A stretch of 64,000 bases of DNA from Lachnospiraceae bacterium (GCA_050874665.1 JBNMLC010000006.1:12930-76929), one strand, 5' to 3'. Counted from the first letter of the stretch, positions 19,051-34,061 are shown. Made by a program: numbers and translations. Notes: generated by a model not told the origin, from the letters alone.

Positions 19051-19135
19051 CTCGTTTCCTCCTCTGACCATTTTACTTATTATATAATAAATAAACAGCA
19101 GTTGCAAGCCGTTTCATGGCAATCATGCAAATTGC

Positions 19136-19552
19136 TCAGATTTGGATTTCAATTTCATGCACTCTTACATTTTTGTCAGAATCAATACCGAAAGCTTTTA
19201 AAACAGGCTGCTCTCTTTCCATCAAAGACAATATTAGATATTCCATCGTCGGATCATACGCTAAACGCTTGTCCTCTTCAGACGGTCTAGACGGTGACTC
19301 CGGATGTGAATGAAAGTTTCCAATCATAGAAAATCCGTTTGCCCGCATATCCTTTACCGCTGCTAATTGTTCCTTCGGATCCATAGAAAAATGTTCATTG
19401 CTGGCATCCATATTAGTAAGCAGATATACTTTTTTAATTGTTTTCACTCCATCTTCAATAGAACCGGCAAGAAGACCACAGGATTCATTTGGCAGTCCTT
19501 CTATGCAATGCTTTAAAATTTGATCATAATCTTCTTTATTGAGTTTCAACAT
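19136..19552 (-). CDS. JAMM/MPN+ metalloprotease (Mec/HcyD/QbsD-like)
   Basis: NESCGLL plus HSHPESPSRPSEED, which fits the JAMM motif HxHx7Sx2D. Last gene of the thiocarboxylate cluster. Confidence 0.8.
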   Translation of the reverse strand: MLKLNKEDYDQILKHCIEGLPNESCGLLAGSIEDGVKTIKKVYLLTNMDASNEHFSMDPKEQLAAVKDMRANGFSMIGNFHSHPESPSRPSEEDKRLAYDPTMEYLILSLMEREQPVLKAFGIDSDKNVRVHEIEIQI

Positions 19553-19577
19553 ATCTGGTATTTCTTCCTTTCCATTT

Positions 19578-20384
19578 CTATTTTTTCATATCGCACTCTG
19601 CCTGCTCGTAGTCAATTAATTCTGTAATGGTTGGATTTTCGCCGCATACTGCACAGTGGCAATCTTTTGGTAATGGTACGGTTCTAAATTGCATTTTTAA
19701 TGCATCATAAGTCAAAAGACGTCCGGTCAGCAAGTCGCCCTGACCAATAATGTACTTCACAGCTTCCATAGCCTGCAGACTTCCGATTACACCACCCATT
19801 GCCCCAATGACACCTGCCTGCTTACATGTCGGCACTGCATCCTTTGGCGGTGGATTCTTAAATACGCAACGATAACATGGACCTTCTCCCGGAACATAAG
19901 TCATCAGTTGTCCCTGGAAACGGATAATTCCCGCATGGGAAAATGGTTTTTTCGCCATAACACATGCATCATTAATCAGGAATTTTGCCGGGAAATTGTC
20001 TGTCCCATCAATAATAAAATCATAGTCTTTCAGAAGTTCCATAATATTTTCAGAAGTTACGAAAGTACGGTAGGTATCTACTTTGATATCCGGATTAATT
20101 GCCAGCATACTTTCTTTTGCTGACTTTACTTTTGCTTTTCCAATGTCTGCTGTAGAATGAATAATCTGTCTTTGCAGATTAGACAAATCCACCTCATCTG
20201 CATCTACAATACCAATATGTCCCACTCCGGCTGCTGCAAGATACATAGCCGCTGGTGCACCCAGACCGCCTGCACCAATAATCAGCACGCTGGCATTTAA
20301 GAGTTTTTTCTGCCCCTTAACACCAACCTCTTTCAATATGATATGGCGTGAATAACGTTCTAACTGTTCGTTCGTAAATGCCAT
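19578..20384 (-). CDS. ThiF/MoeB/HesA family E1-like adenylyltransferase
   Basis: GAGGLGAP nucleotide loop. Two CxxC pairs (CYRC, CAVC). Its start overlaps the stop of the carrier gene (TAATG). Confidence 0.85.
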   Translation of the reverse strand: MAFTNEQLERYSRHIILKEVGVKGQKKLLNASVLIIGAGGLGAPAAMYLAAAGVGHIGIVDADEVDLSNLQRQIIHSTADIGKAKVKSAKESMLAINPDIKVDTYRTFVTSENIMELLKDYDFIIDGTDNFPAKFLINDACVMAKKPFSHAGIIRFQGQLMTYVPGEGPCYRCVFKNPPPKDAVPTCKQAGVIGAMGGVIGSLQAMEAVKYIIGQGDLLTGRLLTYDALKMQFRTVPLPKDCHCAVCGENPTITELIDYEQAECDMKK

Positions 20385-20605
20385 TATCTTGCGCCTCCTC
20401 CCATGAAATACAAGAATTCAATCACATCACCTTCTGCTAACTTTGTTGTATCAAAATCAGCTCTGTCAACAAATTCATCATTTCTTGTCACTGTCACATA
20501 ATCTGCATTTTCCACCTGTTCTTTTTCAATCAAAGTTGTGATATTAATTCCTTCTTCATATTCTTTCTTGTTTCCTGCCACTGTAATTGTCATTTTTCTT
20601 CCCAT
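20384..20605 (-). CDS. ThiS/MoaD-like sulfur carrier protein with a C-terminal GG-AR extension
   Basis: Small beta-grasp-sized ORF ending ...FLYFMGGGAR. Translationally coupled to the E1 gene. An alternative start at 20593 gives MTITVAGN. Confidence 0.7.
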   Translation of the reverse strand: MGRKMTITVAGNKKEYEEGINITTLIEKEQVENADYVTVTRNDEFVDRADFDTTKLAEGDVIEFLYFMGGGAR

Positions 20606-20620
20606 CCTTTTCTTTTCGTT

Positions 20621-20938
20621 TTAAATAATGTCTGCAAATAATTCAAGAATTGCATCCTTTTTTACAGCTCCCTTTGTTCTTGCATATTCTTTTCCCTGAC
20701 TAAATACAATAAGTGTAGGAGCAGCCAGAATATTATATTGTTCTGTCAGTGTTTCTTCATAATTCACATTAACTTTGTAAATATCTATTTTTTCTTCGTA
20801 CTCATCTTCTATATCACCAAGAATTCCTGCCACCATTTTACACGGTACACAAGTATCCGAATAAAAATCTACTAATACTGGCTTTTCTGCCTTTAACACA
20901 AGCGTTTCAAATTCTTCTTTGTTAATTCTCTTTGCCAT
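20621..20938 (-). CDS. thioredoxin family protein (CVPC active site)
   Basis: 105 aa. VDFYSDTCVPCKM... is a thioredoxin-fold pattern. Confidence 0.8.
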   Translation of the reverse strand: MAKRINKEEFETLVLKAEKPVLVDFYSDTCVPCKMVAGILGDIEDEYEEKIDIYKVNVNYEETLTEQYNILAAPTLIVFSQGKEYARTKGAVKKDAILELFADII

Positions 20939-20952
20939 AATCTTTCCTTTCT

Positions 20953-21204
20953 CTACTGCTCCTCTTCTACCTTTCGCACAATAAGAGTATAGGTATCATC
21001 TTCATTTTTGTTTAGCTTTAAAATCTGATGTCCTTCTTCTTTGATACTTCTTGGTACATTTTGAACCGGTTCCCCATCATTCATTCGAATGGCAAGAATC
21101 TGTCCATCTTCTAATTCCTCTAAGGCAACTTTTGCCTTTACAAAAGTAACCGGGCAAACAACATCTGTAATATCTACCGTTTCATCAATTTCAAACTCAG
21201 CCAT
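20953..21204 (-). CDS. TusA/SirA-like sulfurtransferase
   Basis: 83 aa. DITDVVCPVTFVKAKVALEEL carries the conserved Cys of the TusA motif. Confidence 0.75.
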   Translation of the reverse strand: MAEFEIDETVDITDVVCPVTFVKAKVALEELEDGQILAIRMNDGEPVQNVPRSIKEEGHQILKLNKNEDDTYTLIVRKVEEEQ

Positions 21205-22060
21205 GATAAGCCTCCTTTATCTTTTCTATAAATTTTTCTTTTCCTACTCGATCCAGTGTAAATTTAAATCTTTCACCGGCATTTGCATAATCTGCAAAGA
21301 ACTGAATTGCCGCATCTGTAATTCTAAAGAGCTGCTCCTCGTCTGTTACTAACGGCAGTGGTGATTCACCCTTGCTAATGGTATTTCCAAACGTTCCGCC
21401 AAAGGACAGAATATATGCTGACTTGGCATCCCATGCATCTGTTGGACAGGATTTTACACATCTGCCACAATAATTGCATTTATCATAATCCACAACTACT
21501 TTTCCATCGTTAACGGTAATCGCATTGCAGCGACACGCTTTTTCGCAGACACCGCAGCCGATACATTTGTCTTCCACCCACTTTACATCTAGTGCTCCCT
21601 TAATGCCGACATCATTTTCCTCTGCTTTCAGGCAGTTATTCTGACAGCCGGTGACTCCAAATTTGAATTTATGTGGCAGTTCTCTTCCAAAATAGCGGTT
21701 ATTCAATTTTTCAGCAATGTCCTGTGTATTGATATTTCCGCTTGGACAAATTTCATTTCCCTGACAGGCTGTCACTGTTCTGACTCTGGGGCCGCATACC
21801 CCAGGCTGACAACCGCCCTTTGCCAGTTCCTCTTTTACTTCATCTATATCTGCCAGTTTAATAAATGGTATCTCCACGCCTTGTCTGGAGGTTAAATGAA
21901 CATATCCATCGCCGAATTTTTCTGCTACTTCAGCAATCTTTTTCAGGTTTTCTGCTGTAAGTGTTCCACCTACCACCTGTAATCTTAAAGAAAAATTGTT
22001 TTTTTGCTTTTGACGCATAAATCCGCCCTTTTTTAACGTTGAGTAATCTACTGCTCCCAT
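21197..22060 (-). CDS. small siroheme-type sulfite reductase-like protein fused to a 2x[4Fe-4S] ferredoxin domain (AsrC-like)
   Basis: SiR Cys motifs TACQGNEIC (CX5C) and GCQNNC (CX3C). Ferredoxin motifs CIGCGVCEKAC and CNYCGRCVKSCP. Confidence 0.7.
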   Translation of the reverse strand: MGAVDYSTLKKGGFMRQKQKNNFSLRLQVVGGTLTAENLKKIAEVAEKFGDGYVHLTSRQGVEIPFIKLADIDEVKEELAKGGCQPGVCGPRVRTVTACQGNEICPSGNINTQDIAEKLNNRYFGRELPHKFKFGVTGCQNNCLKAEENDVGIKGALDVKWVEDKCIGCGVCEKACRCNAITVNDGKVVVDYDKCNYCGRCVKSCPTDAWDAKSAYILSFGGTFGNTISKGESPLPLVTDEEQLFRITDAAIQFFADYANAGERFKFTLDRVGKEKFIEKIKEAYHG

Positions 22061-22084
22061 ATACGCACTCTCCTTTATGTTTCC

Positions 22085-23320
22085 TTACGCATTTAAAATT
22101 GCCTGTTTAAAATCGGCTTTTAAGTCTTCAATATCCTCTATTCCCACGCTGACACGAATCAGGTCATCATATACACCAGAGGCCTCTCTCTCCTCTTTTG
22201 TCAAATGTAGTGCCAATGTAGATTCTGGATGAATCACCAATGTCTTGGTATCTCCAATATTTGACAATATGTACGGTATCTTTAATCCATTAACGATTTT
22301 GAATGCTCTTTCTTTGCTCCCTGCACGTAATGTAAGAATGGCACCATAACCGTTCTGCATTTGTTTTTTCGCTATTTCATGATATCTGCTGTCTAAAAGT
22401 CCAGGATAATTTACGGTGATTCCTGCCTCCAATGTTGTCAAATACTCCGCAAGCTCTAAAGCATTGGCACATTCTCGTTCCATACGAAGTCCCAGTGTTT
22501 CCAATCCTACACAGTTTAAAAATGCATTTTGCGGGGACAGACAGGCTCCCATATTTCGGAACAAGCCATTTCTCAGCTTCGCAATATATGCCATTTTGCC
22601 AAACTTTAAATATTCCTTCAAACCAGGATAACGTTTAGAATCCCATTGGAAGCTTCCTCCGTCCGTTAAAATTCCACTAATTGCATTACTGCTTCCGTTG
22701 ATATACTTTGAAGATGAATTTACTACAATATCTGCTCCTAATTCTAACGGTCTTGTAAGGTAAGGTGATGCTACCGTATTATCAATAATTAACGGAAGAT
22801 TATGTCTGTGGCTCACCTCTGCAACCGCCGCAATATCTGTGACATCTAGTTTTGGATTTCCTATCGTTTCAGCAAACACTACTCTTGTTTTTTCTGTAAT
22901 GAGTTTTTCAAATTCTTCCGGATCATTTTCTTTTACATAGACTGTTTTAATTCCAAATGCCTCAATATCATGAAGCAAATCTACAGTTCCGCCATACAGA
23001 CCTGCAGCCGCAACAATTTCATCTCCGCTCTGTAAAATATTTAAAAAGGCATTGGTCAATGCTGCCATGCCGGAAGCACATGCAATACTGGCAATTCCTT
23101 TTTCTAACTTTGTTATTTTCTTTTCAAACGCTTCGATGGTAGGATTATTTATTCTTGTATAAGAAAATCCCATTGCTTTATTATCAAATATTTTTTCTAA
23201 TTTTTCCGCACTATCATGGAAGAAGGCGCTGGACTGATAAACCGGTACCATCGTTGCTCCGTAGGGATTATCTTCTTTTATATCATGCAACAGCGATGTG
23301 TTAAATCCAAAATTCTCCAT
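22085..23320 (-). CDS. metY: O-acetylhomoserine sulfhydrylase-type PLP enzyme
   Basis: 411 aa. Cys/Met-metabolism PLP family with a Lys in SSSKYINGS. Confidence 0.85.
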   Translation of the reverse strand: MENFGFNTSLLHDIKEDNPYGATMVPVYQSSAFFHDSAEKLEKIFDNKAMGFSYTRINNPTIEAFEKKITKLEKGIASIACASGMAALTNAFLNILQSGDEIVAAAGLYGGTVDLLHDIEAFGIKTVYVKENDPEEFEKLITEKTRVVFAETIGNPKLDVTDIAAVAEVSHRHNLPLIIDNTVASPYLTRPLELGADIVVNSSSKYINGSSNAISGILTDGGSFQWDSKRYPGLKEYLKFGKMAYIAKLRNGLFRNMGACLSPQNAFLNCVGLETLGLRMERECANALELAEYLTTLEAGITVNYPGLLDSRYHEIAKKQMQNGYGAILTLRAGSKERAFKIVNGLKIPYILSNIGDTKTLVIHPESTLALHLTKEEREASGVYDDLIRVSVGIEDIEDLKADFKQAILNA

Positions 23321-23340
23321 TCTCTTACTCCAATCTCTTT

Positions 23341-24270
23341 TTATTTGTACAATGATGTTGATAAATACCTCTCTCCAGTATCCGGAAGTATTACCACGAT
23401 ATTTTTTCCTTCATTTTCAGGACGTTCTGCCAATTTAATTGCTGCATCTAATGCTGCACCAGAAGAAATCCCCACCATAAGTCCGTCACTGGCTGCAACT
23501 TCTCTGGAACGTTGAAATGCTGCGTTATTTTCTACTTTGATAATCTCATCTACAATGTCTAAACGCATTACCTTTGGCACAAATCCTGCACCGATTCCCT
23601 GTATTGAATGCGGTCCCGGTTTTTCGCCGGATAATACTGCTGAAGTAGCAGGCTCTACAGCAATCACTTTGATTGCAGGATTTTTTTCCTTTAATCCAAG
23701 TCCGGTTCCTGTAATGGTTCCACCCGTTCCCACTGCTGAAACAAAGAAATCAATCTTTCCTGCGGTATCTCTCCAGATTTCTTCTGCTGTAGTTACTTTA
23801 TGAATCTCAGGATTCGCATCATTTTCAAATTGCTGGAGTATCACTGCATTGCCATACTGTTTTTTTAACTCCTGCGCTTTTTCGATTGCGCCTTTCATTC
23901 CTTCGTATCCCGGAGTCAAAACCACTTCTGCTCCCAGTGCCTGTACAATCTTTCTTCTTTCCACACTCATTGTTTCCGGCATAGTAAGAATTAAGTGAAG
24001 CCCCCGGCATGCAGCCGAAAAAGCAAGTCCAATACCTGTATTTCCACTGGTAGGTTCAATCAAAACAGTGTCTTGATTAATCTTTCCTTCTCGAATGCCC
24101 TGTTCAATCATCGCATTCGCTACTCTGTCTTTTACACTTCCTAACGGATTAAAGTATTCTAGTTTTGCTATAATATGTGCTTTCAACTGATGTTCCTGCT
24201 CATAGTTCGTCAGTTCTAAAAGCGGTGTATTACCAATTAGTTCTGTCAAATGACGTGCAATTCCTGCCAT
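23341..24270 (-). CDS. cysK: cysteine synthase (CysK/CysM family)
   Basis: IGNTPLLEL, PTSGNTGIGLA and GIGAGF motifs. 309 aa. Confidence 0.9.
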   Translation of the reverse strand: MAGIARHLTELIGNTPLLELTNYEQEHQLKAHIIAKLEYFNPLGSVKDRVANAMIEQGIREGKINQDTVLIEPTSGNTGIGLAFSAACRGLHLILTMPETMSVERRKIVQALGAEVVLTPGYEGMKGAIEKAQELKKQYGNAVILQQFENDANPEIHKVTTAEEIWRDTAGKIDFFVSAVGTGGTITGTGLGLKEKNPAIKVIAVEPATSAVLSGEKPGPHSIQGIGAGFVPKVMRLDIVDEIIKVENNAAFQRSREVAASDGLMVGISSGAALDAAIKLAERPENEGKNIVVILPDTGERYLSTSLYK

Positions 24271-24300
24271 GTTTTCACCATCCTTTTTTCTTCTGAACCT

Positions 24301-24331
24301 ATCATAATCCCTACTAACCTACTATGTCAAT
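24301..24331 (-). promoter_or_regulatory. sigmaA-type promoter of the cysK-to-JAMM operon
   Basis: Minus strand: ATTGACATAGTAGG..., with TTGACA (24325-24330), an 18-nt spacer and TATGAT (24301-24306). It shares a 14-nt string with the promoter at 26061-26091. Confidence 0.5.
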
Positions 24332-24394
24332 ATGTTTATATGAATAACTGGTTATCGAATACACCTATAGCAAACCTCTTTATAACCTCATTAA

Positions 24395-24826
24395 CTATAT
24401 AACATAATTATCAATCCCTTGATTTTCCCGCATCAAATCCGCAATCGTAATTCCCTCTAAATATTCATCAATCACCTTTTCTAACCCTTCCCACATTTTA
24501 AGTGTACTACATTCCATTGCCCGTTCACATGTATTCGGCTTATGATCCAGACAGGCAACCGGTGCCAGTGAATTTTCCGTAAGCTTCAAAATACTTCCAA
24601 TGGTATACTGCTCTGGTCGTCTTGCCAGTTTATATCCGCCACCTTTTCCTCTAAGTGAAATAAGAAAGCCATTTCTGCTTAATATCACAACAATCGACTC
24701 TAAATATTTTTCTGAAATTTCCTGACGCTTTGCAATATCCATCAACGGTATAAATTCTCCTGTATTATGTTCTGCCAAATCAATCATAACACGAATGGCA
24801 TATCGTCCCTTTGTTGAAATTTTCAT
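24395..24826 (-). CDS. Rrf2 family transcriptional regulator (CymR-like)
   Basis: MKISTKGRYAIRVMIDLA... wHTH. 143 aa. Overlaps the upstream gene by 4 nt. Confidence 0.85.
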   Translation of the reverse strand: MKISTKGRYAIRVMIDLAEHNTGEFIPLMDIAKRQEISEKYLESIVVILSRNGFLISLRGKGGGYKLARRPEQYTIGSILKLTENSLAPVACLDHKPNTCERAMECSTLKMWEGLEKVIDEYLEGITIADLMRENQGIDNYVI

Positions 24827-25983
24827 ACTTCTTCCTCTTTTCCTTTTTCATAATCATCTAAAAAATTATATACCATGTCATCTTTATGATAGCCTATAAT
24901 GGTATTTAAATTTACATTGTGAACACTTTTAAATATGTTTCCGTCAATCACATCACTGACTTTTCTCATCTGTGCAATCAATTCTTTCATTTCATCACGT
25001 TTAGAACCTTTTGCCCCACCACAGGTAGCACAGTTTTCTGTAAAACGGCAGGCACACTGAATAAACGATAATTTGTTATAATCCCTCCATGCCATAATAG
25101 CTTCCTCTTTTATCATATACAATGGTCGAATCAATTCCATTCCTTCAAAATGATTGCTATGAAGTTTTGGCATCATTGTTTCTATTTTTCCACCATAAAA
25201 CATTCCCATAAGCACAGTTTCAATCATATCATCAAAATGATGCCCTAACGCTATTTTATTACAGCCTAATTCTTTTGCCTTAGAGTAAAGATAACCTCTG
25301 CGCATTCTGGCACATAAATAACATGGGCTTTTGTCTATTTCTGCCACAATATCAAAAATCTGCGTTTCAAAGACCGTCAGCGGAATTCCAAGCAGTTTTG
25401 CATTGTTTTGTATTATCTCCCAGTTATCTGCATTGTACCCCGGATTCATAATAAGAAATATTAACTCAAACGGAATTTTCCCATGTCTTTGCAGCTCCTG
25501 CATCAATTTTGCAAGAAGCATAGAATCCTTTCCTCCAGATATACATACCGCAATTTTATCTCCCTCATTTACTAACTGGTATTCATTCACTGCTTTTGTA
25601 AATTTTCGCCAGATTGGCTTTCGAAATTTTTTGATTATGCTGCGCTCAATTTCTTTTGTTCTCTCTGCATAGCTTTCTTCCTCCATCATACAATCCAGTT
25701 GATATCTAAGATACGCCCGATAACCTCCTTTAATATTTACGCCGTGTATTCCATGTTCTTGTAATATTTCTACCGCCTCTTTGCTCTTTTCTCCCGTATG
25801 ACATAAAACATAAACGGCTTCTGCCTTTGCAAATTGCTGTATATTCTGTTCTATTTCTTCCAGCGGGATATTGATCGCATTTTCTACCGTCCCACGATTG
25901 AAATTGTCTTCACTTCTGATATCTATTAAGAAGCTGTTTCCTTCGTCTAATGTAAGTAATTCTTGTATGGTGATTTCTTCCAT
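24823..25983 (-). CDS. rhodanese domain fused to a TtcA-like PP-loop tRNA thiolase
   Basis: N-terminal rhodanese with active-site loop CHTGEKS. CISGGKDS PP-loop. Cys pairs CYLCARMRRG and CAC. Start set at ATG 25983 (MEEITIQ). The track ORF extends to 26010, where there is no SD. Confidence 0.75.
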   Translation of the reverse strand: MEEITIQELLTLDEGNSFLIDIRSEDNFNRGTVENAINIPLEEIEQNIQQFAKAEAVYVLCHTGEKSKEAVEILQEHGIHGVNIKGGYRAYLRYQLDCMMEEESYAERTKEIERSIIKKFRKPIWRKFTKAVNEYQLVNEGDKIAVCISGGKDSMLLAKLMQELQRHGKIPFELIFLIMNPGYNADNWEIIQNNAKLLGIPLTVFETQIFDIVAEIDKSPCYLCARMRRGYLYSKAKELGCNKIALGHHFDDMIETVLMGMFYGGKIETMMPKLHSNHFEGMELIRPLYMIKEEAIMAWRDYNKLSFIQCACRFTENCATCGGAKGSKRDEMKELIAQMRKVSDVIDGNIFKSVHNVNLNTIIGYHKDDMVYNFLDDYEKGKEEEV

Positions 25984-26060
25984 AATTTTGCACCCACTTT
26001 CTATTGTCATAAATAAAAGACGCCATGCCAGACGTCTTTTATCAGTTCTTTCTCAAAATT

Positions 26061-26091
26061 ATATTACACTTTTTCAGCCTACTATGTCAAT
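26061..26091 (-). promoter_or_regulatory. sigmaA-type promoter of the rhodanese-TtcA/Rrf2 operon
   Basis: Minus strand: TTGACA (26085-26090), an 18-nt spacer and TAATAT (26061-26066). Carries the same ATTGACATAGTAGG string as the cysK promoter. Confidence 0.45.
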
Positions 26092-26119
26092 AGGTTAATG
26101 GTGGAGATTGTTCTCCTTC

Positions 26120-26290: not shown

Positions 26291-26303
26291 TTTCCATAAT
26301 TTT

Positions 26304-27092
26304 CTAAATATAATACTCAATATTGAGTTCTGAATTTCCTAAAAAGCTTGTAAGTATCTTTTTTCGAATTTCCAAAAACAGATTATTGCTTCGATCCCTT
26401 GGTCTTGAAAGTTTCACCGGTATAATCTCTTTAATTTTTCCCGGTCGTTCTGACAAAATCACAATACGATCACTTAGGAAAATTGCCTCGTCAATGTCAT
26501 GAGTGACCAGCACCATAGTACGCTTTTCGTGCTCCCAAATACGAAGTACCTCGTTCTGCATGTTAATACGAGTAAATGCATCCAAAGCTCCAAAAGGTTC
26601 ATCCAACAACAGTACCTTTGGATTTCCTACTAAAGCTCTTGCAATACTGGCACGCTGTTGCATGCCACCGGAAAGTTGTGCGGGGTATGCATTTTCAAAT
26701 CCTGTTAATCCTACTAAATCAATATGTTCCTGAATTTTTTTCTCATGTTCACTTTTCGGTACATCCTTAGGAATTCCAAATCGTATATTTTTCTCTATGG
26801 TAAGCCATGGATATAATCTCGCTTCCTGAAACACCATCCCCACATCAGCAATCGGTTTTTCTACCTTTCTCGTTCCCACATCAATTTCACCCGAACTCGC
26901 CTTTTCCAATCCTATGATGAGTTTTAATAATGTACTTTTTCCACAGCCACTAGAGCCAACAATACTGACAAATTCTCCTGGCTTAATATCTAAATTAATA
27001 TCTTCTAGTACCTGAATATTTTCTTTCTCTAAAGGGTATATCTTGGACACATTACGAATATGCAGTTCATTCTCCTGTAATTGCTCTGCCAT
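26304..27092 (-). CDS. ABC transporter ATP-binding protein, TauB/SsuB (NitT/TauT) type
   Basis: Walker [10 protein letters not shown], signature LSGGMQQR, Walker B LLLDEPF. ATG at 27092 sits 6 nt after AGGTG. The track ORF starts at GTG 27101. Confidence 0.9.
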
Positions 27093-27101
27093 TTTATTCA
27101 C

Positions 27102-27896
27102 CTACCTTCCCTGCTGAATATAGTTCCAGCGTAATAATCTTTTTTGGAGCTTTACAATCATAAAATCTATTAATAATCCCACAATCCCAATAGTAAACAC
27201 ACCTGCCAATACAACATCTGGCTGGGATAACTCTCTTGCGTAGGTAATCATATAACCAATACCAGAAGATGCAGCCACCATTTCTGCAGCTACGACACAG
27301 GTCCACGCTGTACTGACTCCCAAGCGAATTCCCGTAAAAATAGAAGGCCATGCCGATGGTAAAATAACATTAAAAAGGACTTCTTTCTTATTTTTTTCTA
27401 AGACACGTGCTACTTCTAATAATTTCTTATCTGCGGATAAAATTCCACTGATTGTATTTAATAAAACCGGCCATAAAGTTCCAATAATAATAACTGCAAC
27501 CTTTGATCCTTCACCAATTCCTAACCAGAGAATCAATAGTGGAATCCATGCTATCATTGGTATCGGTCGAAAAATGCTGACTAATGAGCTGAGTATTTTA
27601 TTCAACTTTTTTGACAAACCCATCAGCACACCTGACAGGATTCCTATTGCTGAGCCTAGTGCGAATCCCTTAATTACCCTGCCACCACTTACCAGCAAGT
27701 TTTCTGCCAATTCACCATTACCAATCAATTTTATCAATGTCTCCCCTACCTTAACAGGTGAAGGAAGTATATGCTTATTTAGAATCCCCGTTACGCTACC
27801 TATATACCAGACAAGCAACAGCACAATAGGTGCAACTACTTTCAAGAAAATATTATCTATTCTTTTCTTTATATACATATTATCTTTTTCTTTCAT
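27102..27896 (-). CDS. ABC transporter permease, TauC/SsuC type
   Basis: 264 aa and multi-pass hydrophobic. Lies immediately upstream of the ATPase. Confidence 0.85.
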   Translation of the reverse strand: MKEKDNMYIKKRIDNIFLKVVAPIVLLLVWYIGSVTGILNKHILPSPVKVGETLIKLIGNGELAENLLVSGGRVIKGFALGSAIGILSGVLMGLSKKLNKILSSLVSIFRPIPMIAWIPLLILWLGIGEGSKVAVIIIGTLWPVLLNTISGILSADKKLLEVARVLEKNKKEVLFNVILPSAWPSIFTGIRLGVSTAWTCVVAAEMVAASSGIGYMITYARELSQPDVVLAGVFTIGIVGLLIDFMIVKLQKRLLRWNYIQQGR

Positions 27897-27916
27897 ATAC
27901 GCACATCCTTTATCAT

Positions 27917-28387
27917 TTATGCATCTTTTGCAAGCCTGTCAATATGAACATATAGCGGATGCTTTTCTTTTTCTTCTTTCCGGCGAACCGGATAGCTCTC
28001 CTCTATAACCTCAGTAGGTTCAATATAATAAACAGCTGCCAAGTCATTATTTTCATCTCGCTCCTGAGCTGCAATATAAGCGTCTTCATACTCATGTCCG
28101 GCAATCAGACATTTTTTAGGTATGCCTTTGATCTGATAACTTTTTCTTTCTTTCGTAATTATATTAATTGCGACTTTTTTATCAAACCAAAGTGCATATG
28201 TCACATTTTTATGTGTCTGAGAACTCTCTAAAAGTTCCCAATAACGAATCTGTCCGTCCTCTGTGACTGCGATACTCTCTTTTGCTACTACATGTGGAAT
28301 ACCATGACGATCAATTGTAGCAAACACTTTTACACTTTCTTTATCTTCTATAGCTTCTTTTAATTCTTTACTAATCTCTGCTGCCAT
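27917..28387 (-). CDS. PNPOx-like / split-barrel flavin-binding family protein (module 1)
   Basis: 156 aa. ...VKVFATIDRHGIPHVVAKES... matches the N-terminal pattern of pyridoxamine-phosphate-oxidase-like proteins. Paralogue of 30831-31301. Confidence 0.55.
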   Translation of the reverse strand: MAAEISKELKEAIEDKESVKVFATIDRHGIPHVVAKESIAVTEDGQIRYWELLESSQTHKNVTYALWFDKKVAINIITKERKSYQIKGIPKKCLIAGHEYEDAYIAAQERDENNDLAAVYYIEPTEVIEESYPVRRKEEKEKHPLYVHIDRLAKDA

Positions 28388-28460
28388 AATGACTTCCTCC
28401 TATTTTTTGATAAAGTATCAGCCACTTTACTTAATTGCAAAGCAGCTGATACCTCAAAAT

Positions 28461-29729
28461 TTAATCAATTCTCGCTAAATCCGTATTTGGATGATTTCCG
28501 CATCGGCGATAATCGTCTGTATAAATAGTAAGACCATTCTTCCTTCTCACTTCCGCAAGCCCTAGTGCTAACTGCACATAATATTCTAAAGAAGGTGTTT
28601 TCTGTTTCATAAAGATTGCACCCGGAAGCGTATTCCATACACATTCTGCAAAACTTACCCCATGAGCAGCAATTTCCTCTGCTTCTGCGAGTACTGCCTT
28701 TAATGCTTCCTGCTCATCGGAAAATCCATTTGGCTGTGCAGTTTCTACACCGCCGACAATACCACAATCTACATTTCCACGCCCAAATACCTCCACTGCA
28801 TCATATAGACGGTGTTTCCATTCATCATACCCTACTAGTCTTGCCTTTCCAGGACATACCCAACTAAACAATTCTTTGTTTAATACTTCCAAATCTGTAG
28901 TGTAAGTAGTAATTGCTGTTTCCTCATACATTCTTTGAAGCTGCTTTTTTGAAAATGCACTGGCAACCAGCTTCACTGGAAATTTATCTGTCTTAAATGC
29001 CTTTTCTGCTGCATGAAGTGCCTTAATATACAAGTCAACCTCATCATCAAATATTTTCGCACCACTTAAGGTCGAACCGGCTGTCATATGATAGGAAGCA
29101 TAGCGCCCTTTCTGCTTAATTGCCTCTCGTACTGTCTCTTCGACATTCTGAAACCATGTTTCATTTCGGACATCGCCTTCATCATTGGCACCGCGGTGAG
29201 CTGAAAATAATGCACAATACTTACATCCTTCTTTTGGATTGTCCCAAAAGTGACATTTCGTAGCCGGTGCAATTGTAATTCGCTGTGGTCTTGCAGATGC
29301 CACCAGACGCATCGGTGTCCCATTACTTGTTGTTTTGTCATAAAAGTCCGGTTTTTCCCAAAACCATGCTTCCTCGTAAACTTTATCCTTATCAACAATC
29401 ACAAGTTTGTCATCTACTACATCTAATATATACGGATCACGATATGTCCAATCATATACCTGGGTATGTCCCTGGCAAATCACAGAACCGTCTCTTAAAA
29501 ACAATCCAATCGGTGAAATCTGTTTTCCATGTCCAATCAAATAATCATAAGGCTCTACATGATGTTTCTTAGGGTCTACTTTTACAAAAGCTCTATCTGT
29601 ATAAGCAATTCCTCTCCTGCTCACATCAATTTTCAATGCCACAATCGGCGGAATATCCGGATACTTTTCTAAGACCTGCTCATAGCTAAGTTCTTTTTCC
29701 CGCCATTTTGTTTTATCATTAATGCTCAT
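28461..29729 (-). CDS. uncharacterised Fe-S / radical-SAM-like enzyme with a CX9CX2C triad (module 1)
   Basis: ARPQRITIAPATKCHFWDNPKEGCKYC, then HMTAGSTL (a GGE-like motif). Paralogue of 31312-32565. ATG at 29729; the track ORF starts at GTG 29738. Family not recognised. Confidence 0.5.
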   Translation of the reverse strand: MSINDKTKWREKELSYEQVLEKYPDIPPIVALKIDVSRRGIAYTDRAFVKVDPKKHHVEPYDYLIGHGKQISPIGLFLRDGSVICQGHTQVYDWTYRDPYILDVVDDKLVIVDKDKVYEEAWFWEKPDFYDKTTSNGTPMRLVASARPQRITIAPATKCHFWDNPKEGCKYCALFSAHRGANDEGDVRNETWFQNVEETVREAIKQKGRYASYHMTAGSTLSGAKIFDDEVDLYIKALHAAEKAFKTDKFPVKLVASAFSKKQLQRMYEETAITTYTTDLEVLNKELFSWVCPGKARLVGYDEWKHRLYDAVEVFGRGNVDCGIVGGVETAQPNGFSDEQEALKAVLAEAEEIAAHGVSFAECVWNTLPGAIFMKQKTPSLEYYVQLALGLAEVRRKNGLTIYTDDYRRCGNHPNTDLARID

Positions 29730-29762
29730 TGTTTTCACTCTTTTCTTAATCTAATGGAAACT

Positions 29763-30809
29763 TTATTTTGCTACTGCTTTATCAAGAAAGCTGGTATCAA
29801 TGTGATTTTTAATTTCTTCCTCTGTCAATTCATTTGTAATCATATCATGAGTTTCAAGAAAATCATAAGTCTCTTTTAAATTTTTCTCGTAATCTTCATC
29901 CCATATAATAGTTCTGTCAGCGTCCTTATTCGTATTTTTTACACGTTCTACTTCAAAACCCGAAAACTCAGCAACTACTTCATAAGCCTCTTCTTCATTT
30001 TCTTTAATCCATTGTTCCGCTTTGTACAATGCCTCCACCAATTTTTCTAACTCATCCGGATGTTCCTCAAGAAACTTATTCGATACAACATTATAGGAAT
30101 ATGCCGGATGTTTTGAGCAGTCTGCCACTTTTATAAATCCCTGATTTTCCACCTTGTCATGAATATAATCTGCATTCATTGCAAGATAGCCGTCGATATC
30201 TCCACTTTCAAAAGCTGCATCTGCATCACTTGTAGATGTAATATTTACAATATTAACATCTTTTTCATCAATTCCTGCATCATTTAAAATTCCAATTAAA
30301 GATTTATGAACATATGTACCTACAAATACGCCAATTTTTTTCCCCTTAAAATCATTTACATCAGAAATTCCAGCATTCTCTGGTGAAATAATTCCAATAT
30401 TTTCTCCCTGCTTTGCTGCTCCTGAAACAATAGTAGTTTCCACACCATTACCAATTCCGATAATAATTGGCTGGTCACCGATACCATTTACGAAATCAAT
30501 ATCTCCTGCTATAAATGCCTCATTTGCAGCCGGTCCATTTTCAAATTCTACCAATTCTACCTTTACATTATTCCCCGCAAAAGCTTCATCTAAGAAACCC
30601 TTTTGGTAAGCCACCAGAAACTGATCATTCCAGATAGAAAATGGAAAATATGCAACCCTGATTACTGTTTCTTCTTTATTTTCTGTTGTTTTTGAATCAA
30701 CACCAGTCTGTGTATCCTCTTTTGAAGTACTTGTGCAGCCTGCAAGCACTCCTAAAGATAAAGTAAATACTACTGCCAATGCAAAAAATCTTTTCGCTAT
30801 ATTTTTCAT
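29763..30809 (-). CDS. ABC transporter substrate-binding lipoprotein, NMT1/SsuA-like
   Basis: Signal peptide with lipobox LAGC. 348 aa. Sits between the two enzyme modules. Confidence 0.75.
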   Translation of the reverse strand: MKNIAKRFFALAVVFTLSLGVLAGCTSTSKEDTQTGVDSKTTENKEETVIRVAYFPFSIWNDQFLVAYQKGFLDEAFAGNNVKVELVEFENGPAANEAFIAGDIDFVNGIGDQPIIIGIGNGVETTIVSGAAKQGENIGIISPENAGISDVNDFKGKKIGVFVGTYVHKSLIGILNDAGIDEKDVNIVNITSTSDADAAFESGDIDGYLAMNADYIHDKVENQGFIKVADCSKHPAYSYNVVSNKFLEEHPDELEKLVEALYKAEQWIKENEEEAYEVVAEFSGFEVERVKNTNKDADRTIIWDEDYEKNLKETYDFLETHDMITNELTEEEIKNHIDTSFLDKAVAK

Positions 30810-30830
30810 AAATCATCTCTCCTCTTTTTA

Positions 30831-31301
30831 TTACTCTACACCATACAAGCGGTCTAAATGCTTTAACAATGGATATTTCTTTTCATCTTCTTGTACCCGG
30901 ACAGCAAATGTTTCCTCTTTCACCACTTCCGGTTCAATTGTCCAGATTGCTGCCAAATCTATATCGCCAAGCTTTTCTCGCAAGAAAACATAAGCTTTTT
31001 CAAATTTCTTTCCTGCGGTAACGCTTTTTAATGGTTTTCCCACAATCTCATAACTCTTTCCATGATTTGTCAGAATGTTGACTGCAACTTTTTTATCAAA
31101 CCAGATGCTATGTACAAAGTTCTGGTTATTTCTTGAGCTTTCCAACACTTCATAAAACTCTAAATTTCCTTCTTCATTTACATAAAGACTTCCTTTAAAT
31201 ACTACATGGGGAATTCCATTCTTATCAATTGATGCGACGACTTTTAATGTATCTTTTGCACTGATATATTCTTTTAATTCTTCGCTTATAATGTCTGCCA
31301 T
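30831..31301 (-). CDS. PNPOx-like / split-barrel flavin-binding family protein (module 2)
   Basis: 156 aa. ...LKVVASIDKNGIPHVVFKGS... Shares GIPHVV, WFDKKVA and DLAA strings with 27917-28387. Confidence 0.55.
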   Translation of the reverse strand: MADIISEELKEYISAKDTLKVVASIDKNGIPHVVFKGSLYVNEEGNLEFYEVLESSRNNQNFVHSIWFDKKVAVNILTNHGKSYEIVGKPLKSVTAGKKFEKAYVFLREKLGDIDLAAIWTIEPEVVKEETFAVRVQEDEKKYPLLKHLDRLYGVE

Positions 31302-31311
31302 ATTCTTCCTC

Positions 31312-32565
31312 CTAAACTCTTAGCAAATCCATACCTGGATGTGCACCGCACCTTCTATAATCATCTGTGTATGGATTCACTCCATATTTATGCGATAAAA
31401 TATCAAATTGTCGATAAGTTTTAATAAAATATTCCAAAGATGGTGTATCCTGATTTTGGAATATGGAGCCTGGAGAAGTTCTCCATACATTTGCCGCAAG
31501 TGCAATTCCATGAGATATAATTTCTTCCGCCTGCTCTATTACATTTTTATATGCTTCTTCTTCCGTTGCAAATCCATTCGGTTTTGCAAGTTCAGTTCCT
31601 AAGACTACGCCAGAAGATATATTACCTTTACCAAATATATCTACCGCTGCATACAAACGGCGTTTCCATTCTTCATATCCGATATGTCTTGCTTTTCCAG
31701 GACATATCCAGTCAAATTTTTCTTTATTCAGCACTTCAATATCTGTTGTATACGTCATTAATTTAGTCTCATGGTATAGGCGTTCTAACTGTTTTTCATT
31801 GAATGCAGAAGAAATCAGCTGACTTGGAATACGATCTGCATTGAAATTTTCTCCAATAGCCTGAAGAATTTCAATGTAACCTTCCAGTTCATCATCCAGC
31901 AATTCTTCACCGGAAAGTATCGAACCTCCTGTCAGGAGAATGCTTGAAAATCTTCCTTTTTGTTTCAAAGCCTCTTTCACCGTTTCTGCTATATATTTCA
32001 CCGGATATCTCTCTTCTTTTTCTCCACGCTTTATGTAATTAGGAGCCATCGGGCAATATTTGCATCCTTCTTTGGCTGTATCCCAAAAATGGCACCACTG
32101 GCACATATAAATATCTATTCTCTGAGGTCTTGCAGTTGCATAACGGCTCATTGGTTCCCCATTGGAAGCCTTTTTATCATAAAAATCTGGTTTTTCCCAA
32201 TATCCGACCTCTTCTAATACTTTCCCCTGGTCTGTGATAACAATTTTATCATCCACAACATCCACTATATATGGATCTCTCTGTGCTTTCTCAGGGTCAA
32301 AGTCAAAGTTCGTAATCAGGTAGGAACCATCCCTGAGAGTCAGACTCTCAGGGGCGTAATCCTGTGTCGTTCGAAATCCGGCAATTGTTCCTATATTGAC
32401 TTGATGGATATTAGGGACTATGCGTTCCTTCGCTGCCTGTGTATAAATTACACCTCTCCTCTGCACATCTACCTTCAAAGTCCAAATCGGTGGAACATCC
32501 GGATATTTTTTCAAAACTTCATCTAAGCTTAATTCTTTTTTTCTCCATTCTTTATCTCGTGCCAT
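31312..32565 (-). CDS. uncharacterised Fe-S / radical-SAM-like enzyme with a CX9CX2C triad (module 2)
   Basis: ARPQRIDIYMCQWCHFWDTAKEGCKYC, then LLTGGSILSGEE. Shares WEKPDFYDK, TYTTD.EVLNKE, CPGKAR, TPSLEY and YTDDYRRCG.HP with 28461-29729. Confidence 0.5.
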   Translation of the reverse strand: MARDKEWRKKELSLDEVLKKYPDVPPIWTLKVDVQRRGVIYTQAAKERIVPNIHQVNIGTIAGFRTTQDYAPESLTLRDGSYLITNFDFDPEKAQRDPYIVDVVDDKIVITDQGKVLEEVGYWEKPDFYDKKASNGEPMSRYATARPQRIDIYMCQWCHFWDTAKEGCKYCPMAPNYIKRGEKEERYPVKYIAETVKEALKQKGRFSSILLTGGSILSGEELLDDELEGYIEILQAIGENFNADRIPSQLISSAFNEKQLERLYHETKLMTYTTDIEVLNKEKFDWICPGKARHIGYEEWKRRLYAAVDIFGKGNISSGVVLGTELAKPNGFATEEEAYKNVIEQAEEIISHGIALAANVWRTSPGSIFQNQDTPSLEYFIKTYRQFDILSHKYGVNPYTDDYRRCGAHPGMDLLRV

Positions 32566-32585
32566 ATCCTAGCTTTCTCCTTTTC

Positions 32586-33764
32586 TTACAGATTCTTCTT
32601 AATTTCTTCCACCTTATCCAATCTTTCCCACGGTAAATCAATATCTGTTCTTCCAAAGTGACCATATGCTGCCGTCTGCTTATAAATTGGTCTTCTTAAA
32701 TCTAAGGCATCAATGATTGCTGCCGGTCTTAAATCAAATACCTTTTCGATTACTTCGACAATCTTTTCTTCCTGAACCGTTCCTGTTCCAAAGGTGTCTA
32801 CTGCAATTGATACCGGTTTTGCTACACCGATGGCATAAGCAAGTTCCACTTCTGCTTTCTTTGCAAGCCCCGCTGCTACTAAATTCTTTGCCACCCATCT
32901 TGCTGCGTATGCTGCAGAACGGTCAACCTTTGTCGGATCTTTTCCTGAAAATGCTCCACCGCCGTGACGACCTGTACCACCGTAAGTATCTACAATAATC
33001 TTTCTTCCGGTTAATCCGGCATCCCCCTGTGGTCCTCCAATTACGAAACGTCCAGTTGGATTGACATAATAAATCGTATCTTTATCCAACAGTTCTGCCG
33101 GAATCACTGGTTCGATTACATACTTAATAATGTCCTTGCGAATCTGCTCTAGAGTTATTGCCTCTGCATGCTGGGTAGAAATAACAATGGTATGAACTCT
33201 CTTTACATTATTGTTATCATCAAATTCTACTGTTACCTGTGACTTTCCATCCGGTCTCAAATAAGGAACTGTTCCATCCTTTCTCACCTTTGCCAGTTGC
33301 CTCGTAAGTCTGTGTGCAAAAGAAATTGCCGGTGGCAAGTATTCTGGCGTTTCATCTGTTGCGTATCCAAAGATAATTCCCTGGTCACCAGCACCTGTAC
33401 CAAAATCTTCTGTAGCACCTTCTTGTTTTGATTCATATGCCTTGTCCACGCCAAGTGCGATATCCGGTGACTGTTCATCCAAAGATGTCAGTACTGCAAT
33501 GGAATCTGCATCAAAACCACCAGCACTTCCGTCATAACCAATTTCCCGAATAGTGTCTCTTGCAATCTTCGCAATATCAACATAAGCATTTGTAGATATC
33601 TCTCCAACTACTAATGCCAGCCCGGTTGCAACCGTTGTTTCTGCTGCAACTCTTGCGTTTGGATCTTGTGCAATTAATGCATCTAAAATTGCATCGGATA
33701 CTTGATCCGCAATTTTATCTGGATGTCCTTCTGTTACTGATTCTGATGTAAATAATTTACTCAT
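32586..33764 (-). CDS. metK: S-adenosylmethionine synthetase
   Basis: [19 protein letters not shown] and GGGAFSGKD motifs. 392 aa. Only 20 nt, with no hairpin, before the next gene. Confidence 0.97.
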
Positions 33765-33859
33765 AATTTATCTTCCTCTCTTATTCTCTTAATTTTGAAA
33801 TTTGCTTATCTGTTTATTTTTGTTTATTTTTTTATTCTGCTATTATCTATTATTTTATT

Positions 33860-33955
33860 TTATAAAGAAGTGAAGCAACAATTTTCCCTCTCCTCTGTTG
33901 CAATGCATCTACATTGTGTCTGTCTGTTCCAATAACTGGTTGTCTTCTTTTTCAT
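33860..33955 (-). CDS. candidate 31-codon Cys-rich upstream ORF / leader peptide in the metK 5' region
   Basis: AAGGAG lies 9 nt before the ATG. MKKKTTSYWNRQTQCRCIATEERENCCFTSL has 4 Cys. Below the ORF-track cutoff. It could be a chance ORF. Confidence 0.25.
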   Translation of the reverse strand: MKKKTTSYWNRQTQCRCIATEERENCCFTSL

Positions 33956-34061
33956 ACTTCTTCTCTCCTTATTGTTTATTTAAGGAATCAAGTTTTTATT
34001 TTCTTTCTTCCTTACAACGCAAATCATATCCTAGTTTTCCTATTTATTCCATATGAAAACT

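Follow-up and report, generated by a model that had tools for sequence, protein, structure and literature searches.

A conserved radical SAM and ABC importer module beside a sulfite reductase operon in a Lachnospiraceae bacterium: a putative route for oxygen-independent organosulfur acquisition

Introduction

Oxygen-independent release of sulfite from C2 and C3 sulfonates is known for the glycyl-radical lyases IslAB, HpsGH, and HpfGH and for the thiamine diphosphate-dependent enzyme Xsc. Strict anaerobes reportedly use sulfonate sulfur (work of Chien, Leadbetter, and Godchaux, and of Denger and Cook, in the 1990s), and to our knowledge Xsc, the glycyl-radical lyases, and the Isr enzymes are absent from many sulfonate-using strict anaerobes. 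Here, we analyze a stretch of 64,000 nucleotides from a Lachnospiraceae bacterium (GCA_050874665.1), hereafter called the window, in which three neighboring operons (A, B, and C) occur. Our main subject is operon C, which encodes an ATP-binding cassette (ABC) importer, a second S-adenosylmethionine (SAM) synthetase, and two paralogous pairs of a variant radical SAM enzyme (rSAM) and a 156-aa protein. Nearby, operon A carries sulfite reductase and thiocarboxylate genes. The rSAM/156-aa/ABC module is a conserved unit across many lineages and is repeatedly linked to metK and sulfur genes.

A described system that invites comparison is the Group IV nitrogenase-like (NFL) system IsrBHDK of R. capsulatus. 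IsrB is a radical-SAM-only protein that is unrelated to NifB and is encoded beside isrHDK and ssuCAB; it is essential for anaerobic isethionate assimilation, its role has been called obscure, and it may be one of maturation (PMC11423573; PMC13474568). In that work, 65 orthologues of IsrB were extracted versus 34-40 for IsrH, IsrD, or IsrK, which would fit the existence of IsrB-like proteins without the nitrogenase-like part. A preliminary description of the window had named glycyl-radical enzymes as the characterized anaerobic C–S lyases. This list is incomplete, as Xsc, IsrBHDK, and the methylthio-alkane reductase (MAR) MarBHDK are also independent of O2 (PMC11423573, PMC13474568, PMC13753814).

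The source genome has a size of 3.18 Mb, is 99.9% complete, and consists of 50 contigs, of which C6 contains the window (C6:12930-76929). The closest public relatives of the window proteins come from Lachnospiraceae of the rumen and faeces.

Comparison with known sulfonate systems

Operon C resembles IsrBHDK in its putative role in the anaerobic acquisition of sulfonate sulfur, in the SsuABC-type importer encoded alongside, and in a radical SAM protein that is not NifB-like. The window rSAMs share the NF045502 model with a 407-aa rSAM encoded beside NifH/NifDK-like genes in a related locus (L004), which scores 422 bits on this model, the highest value among the proteins scanned. Identity between the window rSAMs and this NFL-associated protein is ~23% (E = 2e-16), and the ICPGKA motif and the C-x8/9-C-x2-C spacing are common to both. 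The window rSAMs represent a divergent subfamily within the NF045502 model. In a rough comparison, the NifK-like cysteine motifs of L004 lean to the Isr type. The taxonomic range of Isr (Bacillota, Spirochaetota, Pseudomonadota, and Myxococcota) overlaps that of the related loci found here.

Unlike IsrBHDK, operon C is without NifH, NifD, or NifK, has the 156-aa split-barrel protein as its constant partner, and includes a dedicated metK. A tblastn search with the L004 NifH/D/K-like proteins gave no match in operon C or elsewhere in the genome, so the rSAM/156-aa pair must act without a nitrogenase-like enzyme. Glycyl-radical systems also need a radical SAM protein, but the rSAM of operon C has no glycyl-radical partner and is larger, at ~420 aa with an extra N-terminal domain versus ~300 aa for a glycyl-radical activase. 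The statement that the locus has no glycyl-radical enzyme holds for the window; the only PF02901 match of the genome is a pyruvate formate-lyase-like gene at C2:74981-76741.

With the aerobic systems SsuEADCB and TauABCD, operon C has in common a substrate-binding protein (SBP) of the SsuA/TauA family, an SsuC-like permease, and an SsuB-like ATPase. It also recalls the two-component logic of SsuEADCB, in which a catalytic enzyme works with a small redox partner (SsuD with the FMN reductase SsuE). However, operon C encodes radical SAM proteins and not a flavin- or Fe/2-oxoglutarate-dependent oxygenase, and O2 should not be needed. The second-best NCBIfam match of both rSAMs is the MSMEG_0568 family (TIGR04043), for which scores of 42-44 bits are far under the cut-off of 303.7. 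Members of that family are described as clustering with a GNAT protein.

Conservation of the module

One genome for each GTDB species was scanned with a pattern, which gave 236 relatives; of these, the best 78 loci (≥47% identity) were kept. Neighbors were labeled by our own open reading frame (ORF) calling and BLAST against the window proteins, with Pfam checks of representatives, and the remaining neighbors were grouped by unbiased clustering. As many of the 78 loci end at contig edges, the neighbor counts are lower bounds, and the loci are not phylogenetically independent. The loci belong to Bacillota, Spirochaetota, Synergistota, Chlorobiota, Pseudomonadota, and Myxococcota, and also to Desulfuromonadaceae. 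They include Lachnospiraceae and many other Bacillota, Treponema and other Spirochaetaceae, Synergistaceae, Chlorobiaceae, Competibacteraceae, Rhodocyclaceae, Uliginosibacterium, and Myxococcales.

In 75 of the 78 loci, no more than 1.5 kb separates the gene for the 156-aa protein from the rSAM gene. Near the rSAM gene, 69 loci encode a NitT/TauT-type permease, 68 an SBP, and 58 an ATPase; metK is found within 5 kb in 39, and at least two rSAM copies are present in 19. The exact two-pair gene order of the window recurs in L006, L012-L015, and L037. Among the cultured carriers of the module are Pseudobutyrivibrio sp. OR37 (L013, with this two-pair order), Blautia sp. MSJ-19 (L023), Desulfitobacterium sp. 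Sab5 (L035), and Caproiciproducens sp. R1 (L044/L058).

The co-localization on which the preliminary description had built recurs in a part of the related loci. A SiR/TusA/ThiS/ThiF/JAB/MetY cluster (SiR, sulfite reductase) lies within 10 kb of the module in 7-8 loci, with differing gene orders. These are found in Pseudobutyrivibrio, two other Lachnospiraceae/Clostridiales, Caproiciproducens, Bulleidia, Family XIII, and a Bacillota metagenome-assembled genome (MAG). In L076, the cluster directly follows the rSAM/156-aa pair. This adjacency (~10%) compares to a rough chance expectation of ~0.7% per locus for 10 kb in a 3-Mb genome, a more than 10-fold excess among loci that are not independent.

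Other recurrent neighbors point in the same direction. In L017, L018, L037, and L053, the gene next after the module is of the TauE/SafE sulfite-exporter type, and a siroheme-synthesis block (SirC-like, HemC, CobA-HemD, HemB, and HemL-type) lies upstream of LacI-metK in L016, L017, and L037. The neighboring TauE, sulfite reductase, and siroheme synthesis genes suggest sulfite as the product of C–S cleavage. A class-III aminotransferase of L016, L017, and L037 was considered as a taurine:pyruvate aminotransferase and rejected, since its HemB/HemC/CobA-HemD/SirC context identifies it as HemL; one argument for taurine is thereby lost and one for sulfite reduction gained. Further neighbors include short-chain dehydrogenases/reductases (SDR), zinc-dependent alcohol dehydrogenases, 2-hydroxyacid dehydrogenases, arylsulfotransferases, an alkylsulfatase, a nitroreductase, and a PNP_UDP_1 nucleosidase. 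The PNP_UDP_1 family removes 5'-deoxyadenosine and methylthioadenosine (MTA). A GNAT gene is near the rSAM gene in 14 related loci and directly upstream of it in L034, L038, and L040.

In seven loci, including Chlorobiaceae, a Lacrimispora MAG, and Desulfitobacterium, the module is flanked by NifH/D/K-like clusters that have an SsuA-type importer of their own. The NF045502-type rSAM family seems to have radiated within organosulfur islands and to be dedicated to organosulfur acquisition, judging from these gene neighborhoods. The Chlorobiaceae loci L068, L070, and L074 and the locus L049 (Clostridium sp.) have two to four tandem NF045502-type rSAM genes, often each followed by an SDR gene, and in the Chlorobiaceae these surround the NifH/D/K-like cluster. 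In L049 and L022, which both encode several rSAMs of the NF045502 type, none of the genes labeled in the retrieved stretch is NifH/D/K-like. In a Bacillota subgroup (L039, L041, L046, L047, L050, and L052), a PLP-dependent group-II decarboxylase-like gene follows the second rSAM gene; where labeled (L039 and L052), a GNAT gene comes next, which hints at an amino-sulfonate or amino-acid-like substrate.

The importer and the second SAM synthetase

Operon C (26304-33764) is transcribed in the order metK, 417-aa rSAM, 156-aa protein, SBP, 425-aa rSAM, 156-aa protein, permease, and ATPase (Table 1). The window SBP passes the aliphatic-sulfonate model TIGR01728 marginally (165.5 versus a cut-off of 163.5 bits), and that of L004 passes it clearly (241.7 bits). 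All 58 module-linked SBPs scanned match both TIGR01728, at E <= 1e-5, and the taurine model TIGR01729, and these two are the models matched by most of them. The best NCBIfam matches of the window ATPase are SaoA, NtrCD, TauB, and SsuB, all under their cut-offs (SsuB 215.6 versus 395; TauB 223.6 versus 357), and the permease is likewise under those of SsuC (168.9 versus 347) and TauC (168.4 versus 342). Membership in the SAO system (SaoA/SaoP/SaoX; bioRxiv 10.1101/2022.07.06.499078), suggested by the best ATPase and permease matches, was rejected on cut-offs: SaoA 264 versus 360, SaoP 192 versus 295, and SaoX 39.7 versus 300.

The metK of operon C is not the housekeeping copy. Another metK, whose product is 66% identical, is present at C4:7020-8186, and the module-linked metK was an additional copy in all six module-carrying genomes checked (this one and five others). 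Each of the five others has at least two metK genes. In four of them, the module-linked MetK is closest to that of the window, at 73-87% identity versus 65-69% for the other copy. A dedicated SAM synthetase at the head of the operon points to a heavy demand for SAM and thus suggests that SAM is used as a co-substrate.

The same gene can be read in another way. A methylthio compound, such as dimethylsulfide, methylthioethanol, or an S-methyl or MTA-derived compound, could be imported and cleaved to methanethiol, which MetY would convert directly to methionine for the synthesis of SAM by the adjacent MetK, in analogy to MarBHDK. The frequency of metK close to the module and the MetY-like genes that are often close by agree with such thioether salvage, as does the fact that the NFL clusters adjoining the module in seven loci belong to the group that contains MAR. 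Moreover, the products of MAR feed O-acetylhomoserine sulfhydrylase (PMC13474568, PMC13753814). However, every module SBP scanned falls within the sulfonate/taurine SBP families, the recurrent TauE/SafE, small sulfite reductase, and siroheme genes would not be needed for methanethiol, and an ABC importer is not normally required for volatile thioethers. We therefore regard thioether salvage as improbable.

The variant radical SAM enzymes and their 156-aa partners

The two rSAMs are 51% identical to each other and the two 156-aa proteins 49%, and the whole genome has just two copies of each gene. The duplicated Fe-S/flavoprotein modules of the preliminary description are thus real as duplications, while the word flavoprotein stands for a resemblance at the fold level only. 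Under the Pfam model PF04055 (Radical_SAM), copy a stays below the gathering threshold (25.4 versus 29.5), and copy b gives no match. The canonical CX3CX2C spacing is absent from 40 aligned rSAM sequences, which have C-x8/9-C-x2-C instead; variant cysteine spacings are known within the radical SAM superfamily. In copy a, the cluster motif is C-x9-C-x2-C (CHFWDxxKEGCKYC), and C158, C168, and C171 are invariant in 40 diverse homologues. In these homologues, two further cysteines, C288 in WICPGK and C406 in DDYRRCGxHP near the C terminus, are also invariant, together with a T-G-G motif at the place of the usual SAM-binding GGE.

An AlphaFold (AF2) model of rSAM copy a, built from the 40-homologue alignment, reached a mean confidence (pLDDT) of 91.8, and its C-terminal two-thirds form a radical SAM barrel. 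Foldseek matches were MgmA, LipA, BioB, MiaB, RlmN, and NosL (E 1e-7 to 1e-5, TM-score <=0.63 by target length). For the extra N-terminal domain of ~140 mostly beta residues, Foldseek gave no structural match, and a PDB sequence search gave no match for either the rSAM or the 156-aa protein.

The 156-aa proteins score 16.9 and 13.9 bits on Pfam PNPOx_N, under the cut-off of 28.1 (E = 0.008, not significant). The model of copy a has 79 PDB matches at E <= 0.001, with the haem-binding HupZ first, followed by F420/FMN-binding split-barrel and PNPOx-like proteins. Residues W67, Y104, H148, and D150 are invariant in the family, and the H-x-D pair (H148/D150) lies within a flexible C-terminal tail of the model. 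The predicted structure is that of a PNPOx/HupZ-like split barrel, and the protein is a putative redox or cofactor protein.

Family members of 567-621 aa were considered as fusions of an rSAM and a 156-aa protein and rejected, as their extensions have no similarity to the 156-aa protein and no Pfam match. Distant members with extra domains are P0128, P0133, P0136, P0137, P0142, P0143, P0192, and P0240; six of these eight have a C-terminal extension of ~150-200 aa, distinct from the 156-aa protein, while P0192 is fused to an N-terminal GntR/FCD regulator, and P0240 has a C-terminal SCP2 domain.

These features also bear on a non-catabolic function, in which the rSAM/156-aa pair would mature or repair a cofactor or protein under sulfur limitation, or modify the imported compound without releasing sulfur. 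NifB-like NFL partners have been proposed in the literature as cofactor maturases, NF045502 is best matched by rSAMs beside nitrogenase-like genes, and IsrB may be a maturation factor (PMC11423573, PMC13474568). The fold matches of the rSAM include the sulfur-inserting LipA, BioB, and MiaB, and the top match of the 156-aa protein binds haem. Against this, there is no obvious client protein, as tblastn with the L004 NifH/D/K-like proteins found no nitrogenase-like gene in the genome; the near-obligate linkage of the pair is to the importer and not to a client enzyme; and two diverged pairs on one transporter fit two substrates better than maturation. A role of this kind appears quite unlikely to us.

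The sulfite reductase and thiocarboxylate operon

Operon A (19136-24270) is transcribed in the order PALP, MetY, NIR_SIR, TusA, thioredoxin, ThiS, ThiF, and JAB, with gaps of 25 nt or less. By its gene content, it is an already known type of gene set. The ThiS/JAB/E1/SirA/sulfite-reductase/O-acetylhomoserine sulfhydrylase neighborhood was catalogued by Iyer, Burroughs, and Aravind in 2006 (PMC1779556, Table 1 row 4e), and row 4e has an E1 without a rhodanese domain and SirA/TusA instead. Compared to HcyS-HcyF-HcyD-MetY-Sir of Wolinella succinogenes, CysO-MoeZ-Mec-CysM of M. tuberculosis, and the 4e type, operon A has every listed component. Those held in common with the 4e type are a GG-tailed carrier, a rhodanese-less E1, JAB, SirA/TusA, sulfite reductase, and O-acetylhomoserine sulfhydrylase. 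In contrast to the HcyS/CysO systems, operon A adds a CysK/M-type enzyme and a thioredoxin, its sulfite reductase is very small (287 aa) with an inserted ferredoxin domain, and the sulfate-activation genes are on a separate contig and not in the cluster.

MetY of W. succinogenes uses the thiocarboxylate of a carrier protein and not bisulfide (PMC8191291, citing Tran et al. 2011). The translated ThiS-like carrier of operon A ends in ...FMGGGAR, that is, GG and a two-residue tail. In the work of the Begley laboratory, a JAB protease reportedly trims the residue past GG and later frees homocysteine, and the GG-AR tail fits such a JAB-trimming scheme. The sulfite-reductase-like protein scores under the AsrC cut-off (161 versus 324 bits). 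A second small NIR_SIR/ferredoxin protein, 36% identical to it, is encoded at C17:27074-27922, and these two are the only NIR_SIR-type proteins of the genome.

Sulfate assimilation elsewhere in the genome

The route had initially been presented as self-contained, from an imported organosulfur compound to SAM, on the observation that the window has no sulfate-activation genes. The observation is correct: the PAPS_reduct and APS kinase (APS, adenosine 5'-phosphosulfate) matches of the genome are all off C6, with PAPS_reduct on contigs C9 and C26 only and APS kinase on C2. The conclusion was overstated, however, since a genome-wide search for cysDNCH-type genes led to a clostridial-type cluster for sulfate uptake and activation, with CysDN and an APS-reductase-like protein, at C9:37895-50263. 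This cluster contains sbp, cysT, cysW, cysA, an AprA-like gene and a small ferredoxin gene, cysD, cysN, cysK, and metY; gene identities were assigned from ORF sizes, N-terminal sequences, the PAPS_reduct match, and tblastn. The AprA-like flavoprotein has 567 aa, CysD scores 201 bits on PAPS_reduct, the CysN-like protein has 557 aa, and LysR and Rrf2 regulators are also encoded. Its CysK and MetY are second copies in the genome. No Sat-type ATP sulfurylase match was found in the whole genome. Since a sulfite reductase gene is missing from the C9 cluster, the sulfite reductase of the window probably serves the C9 pathway too.

Regulation of the three operons

All 18 genes of 19136-33764 are on the minus strand with short gaps between them, and the same strand continues to 35448, so the three contiguous, co-oriented operons first described are borne out. 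In operon B, the rhodanese-TtcA-like gene comes first and overlaps the Rrf2 gene by 4 nt. Its gene content is as first given for 24395-25983, although the longest ORF begins at 26010 and not at 25983. The rhodanese-TtcA-like protein scores 205.6 bits on the TtcA model versus a cut-off of 272.

On the minus strand, operons A and B are preceded by an identical 14-nt string, ATTGACATAGTAGG (24318-24331 and 26078-26091, respectively); when the flanks are included, 17 of 18 nucleotides agree. It embeds the -35 hexamers of both promoter-like sites and is a candidate operator or promoter element for the Rrf2 regulator, common to A and B. Operon B is probably in the same cysteine/sulfur regulon as operon A. 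The string was not found upstream of metK in operon C.

Instead, operon C is preceded by two identical LacI-type operators, which sit upstream of metK and downstream of the LacI-family gene. The same operator type, TG[AT]AAACG[AG]TT[TA]CA, lies 120-400 nt before the first module gene in L006, L007, L008, L016, L019, L020, and L032, and it is the sole match per ~20-kb locus in these seven except L006, which has two, both upstream of the module. Because these operators are conserved in relatives, operon C appears to be under its own repressor, distinct from the regulator of A and B. The three operons thus have no single visible control element in common: the promoter string is shared by A and B, but not by C. 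Separate operators would be compatible with a common sulfur response, but they give no support for a simple co-regulation of A-C. Riboswitch control was rejected, since no S-box, SAM-II/SMK, or T-box was found before the three operons or in L004 and L005.

Ahead of metK is an ORF of 31 codons, four of them for Cys (33868-33963, minus strand); it shows conservation in L006 and none in L037. The metK genes of L024 (3-4 Cys), L028 (6 Cys/41 codons), and L064 (11 Cys/42 codons) are also preceded by small ORFs that are rich in Cys but unrelated. Such ORFs may encode leader peptides that sense cysteine.

The space between operons C and B bears the scar of a deletion: past the ABC ATPase gene, apt is truncated (26120-26303 of the window), and just its 3' third is left. 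L006, a relative with 93% identity, has both a MatE gene and a complete apt between its ATPase and rhodanese-TtcA genes (16288-18160), and the window is without ~1.87 kb of this stretch.

The findings on sulfate assimilation and regulation raise the question of coincidental clustering, in which operon A would serve the C9 sulfate pathway, operon B tRNA thiolation, and operon C an unrelated nutrient such as a vitamin precursor. The C9 cluster without a sulfite reductase gene, the different regulatory elements (the A/B promoter string versus the LacI-type operators of C), and the 1.9-kb deletion between C and B, by which the present contiguity is partly recent, agree with it. Nevertheless, the adjacency of the module and the SiR cluster recurs in at least seven lineages, more than 10 times the rough chance level for loci that are not phylogenetically independent; the other module neighbors are overwhelmingly sulfur-related; and the best-scoring SBP families are not of the ThiY/HMP type. 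We consider coincidence very unlikely.

Proposed function and mechanism

Operon C is quite likely an organosulfur-acquisition module functionally tied to sulfur assimilation. For the region as a whole, we lean slightly towards a sulfur-acquisition and assimilation island in a strict anaerobe, in which operon C imports a sulfonate and the rSAM/156-aa pairs release sulfite for operon A. Comparative genomics makes O2-independent C–S cleavage feeding operon A, as put forward from the window alone, the best reading of the locus; we infer the substrate and the chemistry.

In this scheme, the SsuA/TauA-type ABC transporter of operon C would take up an organosulfur compound, for which an aliphatic or hydroxy/amino sulfonate is the likeliest candidate. 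The two paralogous rSAM/156-aa pairs would cleave the C–S bond and release sulfite without O2, a glycyl-radical enzyme, or a nitrogenase-like partner. A chemically plausible route would begin with abstraction of a hydrogen atom adjacent to the carbon that bears the sulfonate group and continue with loss of a sulfite radical and then reduction, with electrons delivered, speculatively, by the 156-aa protein or by the Cys288/Cys406 pair. The dedicated second MetK, first in the operon, would supply SAM, whose consumption may be stoichiometric. Sulfite from both the organosulfur compound and the sulfate/APS pathway would then be reduced by the small siroheme sulfite reductase of operon A. The sulfide would be loaded on the ThiS-like carrier as a thiocarboxylate by E1, TusA, and thioredoxin, MetY and CysK/M would turn this into homocysteine and cysteine, and JAB would trim the carrier tail and release the product. 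These operon A steps follow what is established for this family of systems.

Several points weigh against this scheme. With its own sulfate uptake and activation cluster, the organism needs no organosulfonate as a source for its sulfite reductase, and the SiR cluster is adjacent in just ~10% of the sampled loci. The SBP family is the sole guide to the substrate, the margin of the window SBP is 2 bits, and the permease and ATPase are under all equivalog cut-offs. The best fold match of the 156-aa protein is a haem-binding protein, and from the model flavin, haem, or no cofactor would all be possible. The adjacency of metK and MetY fits a route from methylthio compounds to methanethiol about as well. 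Operon C does not have the A/B string, and LacI-type regulators are more usual for sugars or nucleosides. Finally, no SAM or other riboswitch of the types named above precedes any of the three operons.

A bolder and rather doubtful proposal is that the rSAM and the 156-aa protein form a self-sufficient radical SAM desulfonase that uses SAM as a co-substrate. After Xsc, the glycyl-radical lyases, and Isr, this would be the fourth means of breaking sulfonate C–S bonds without O2. The use of SAM as a co-substrate would explain the dedicated MetK.

Other features of the window

The coordinates of the genes and regulatory elements are collected in Table 1. A nitroreductase-family gene (18514-19107, minus strand) comes next after the JAB gene of operon A and may encode an accessory reductase; in a Chlorobiaceae locus (L070:11780-12343), the gene immediately after that of the 156-aa protein is a nitroreductase gene as well. 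The window further contains an RNase P RNA (class A, 37421-37773) and a tRNA (48815-48898), both unrelated to the sulfur genes, and its sole T-box (58339-58538) is unrelated to the three operons.

Table 1. Genes and regulatory elements of operons A, B, and C and of the adjoining regulator, in window coordinates
Feature	Position	Strand	Evidence or remark
JAB/MPN metalloprotease, HcyD/Mec-like	19136..19552	-	Pfam Prok-JAB 78.6 bits
E1-like ThiF adenylyltransferase, single domain, without rhodanese	19578..20384	-	Pfam ThiF 296 bits, residues 11-245 of 268
ThiS-like sulfur carrier	20384..20605	-	Pfam ThiS 40.5 bits
Thioredoxin	20621..20938	-	Pfam Thioredoxin 86.9 bits
TusA/SirA sulfurtransferase	20953..21204	-	Pfam TusA 73.2 bits
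Siroheme-type sulfite-reductase-like protein, 287 aa, inserted 2x[4Fe-4S] ferredoxin domain	21197..22060	-	NIR_SIR, NIR_SIR_ferr, Fer4
MetY-like O-acetylhomoserine sulfhydrylase	22085..23320	-	Cys_Met_Meta_PP 393 bits
CysK/CysM-type PLP enzyme	23341..24270	-	PALP 252 bits
Operon A promoter-like site	24301..24331	-	Holds string ATTGACATAGTAGG
Rrf2-family regulator, IscR/CymR-like	24395..24826	-	Under equivalog cut-offs
Rhodanese fused to PP-loop TtcA-like thiolation ATPase	24823..26010	-	Rhodanese and ATP_bind_3
Operon B promoter-like site	26061..26091	-	Holds string ATTGACATAGTAGG
ABC ATPase, NitT/TauT type (sulfonate/taurine/nitrate)	26304..27101	-	ABC_tran
ABC permease, SsuC/TauC-like	27102..27896	-	BPD_transp_1
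156-aa split-barrel partner, copy b	27917..28387	-	49% identical to copy a; weak PNPOx_N match
Variant radical SAM enzyme, copy b, 425 aa	28461..29738	-	Motif CHFWDNPKEGCKYC; NF045502 182.1 bits versus cut-off 125
Lipoprotein SBP, SsuA/TauA family	29763..30809	-	Lipobox LAGC; TIGR01728, NMT1
156-aa split-barrel partner, copy a	30831..31301	-	AF2 pLDDT 91.7
Variant radical SAM enzyme, copy a, 417 aa	31312..32565	-	NF045502 185.4 bits versus cut-off 125
SAM synthetase MetK, second copy, module-linked	32586..33764	-	Three MetK Pfam domains
Two identical LacI/cre-type palindromic operators, 93 bp apart, upstream of metK	34062-34075, 34155-34168		Sequence TGAAATCGTTTACA
LacI-family regulator	34369..35448	-	Beside module in 14 related loci

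Significance

In the literature searched, there is no described function for operon C and no stand-alone radical SAM desulfonase, and its genes are annotated as 'radical SAM protein' or 'hypothetical protein'. From its gene content, operon C would be a new anaerobic organosulfur-acquisition system, with an rSAM related to the NFL-associated type and no nitrogenase-like component, and it could represent a new enzyme class. As a pointer to heavy SAM use, the dedicated MetK paralog is both unusual and open to testing. If the desulfonase proposal were true, IsrB-type rSAMs would by homology take part in C–S chemistry and not in cofactor maturation, and the module would provide a handle on these partners of nitrogenase-like sulfur enzymes. 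The module is compact, is found in several phyla, and is common in rumen and gut Lachnospiraceae as well as present in sediment anaerobes. If it is indeed a radical SAM desulfonase, the anaerobic sulfur cycle would gain a new class of enzyme, with a bearing on the sulfite and H2S that are made in the gut from dietary and host sulfonates.

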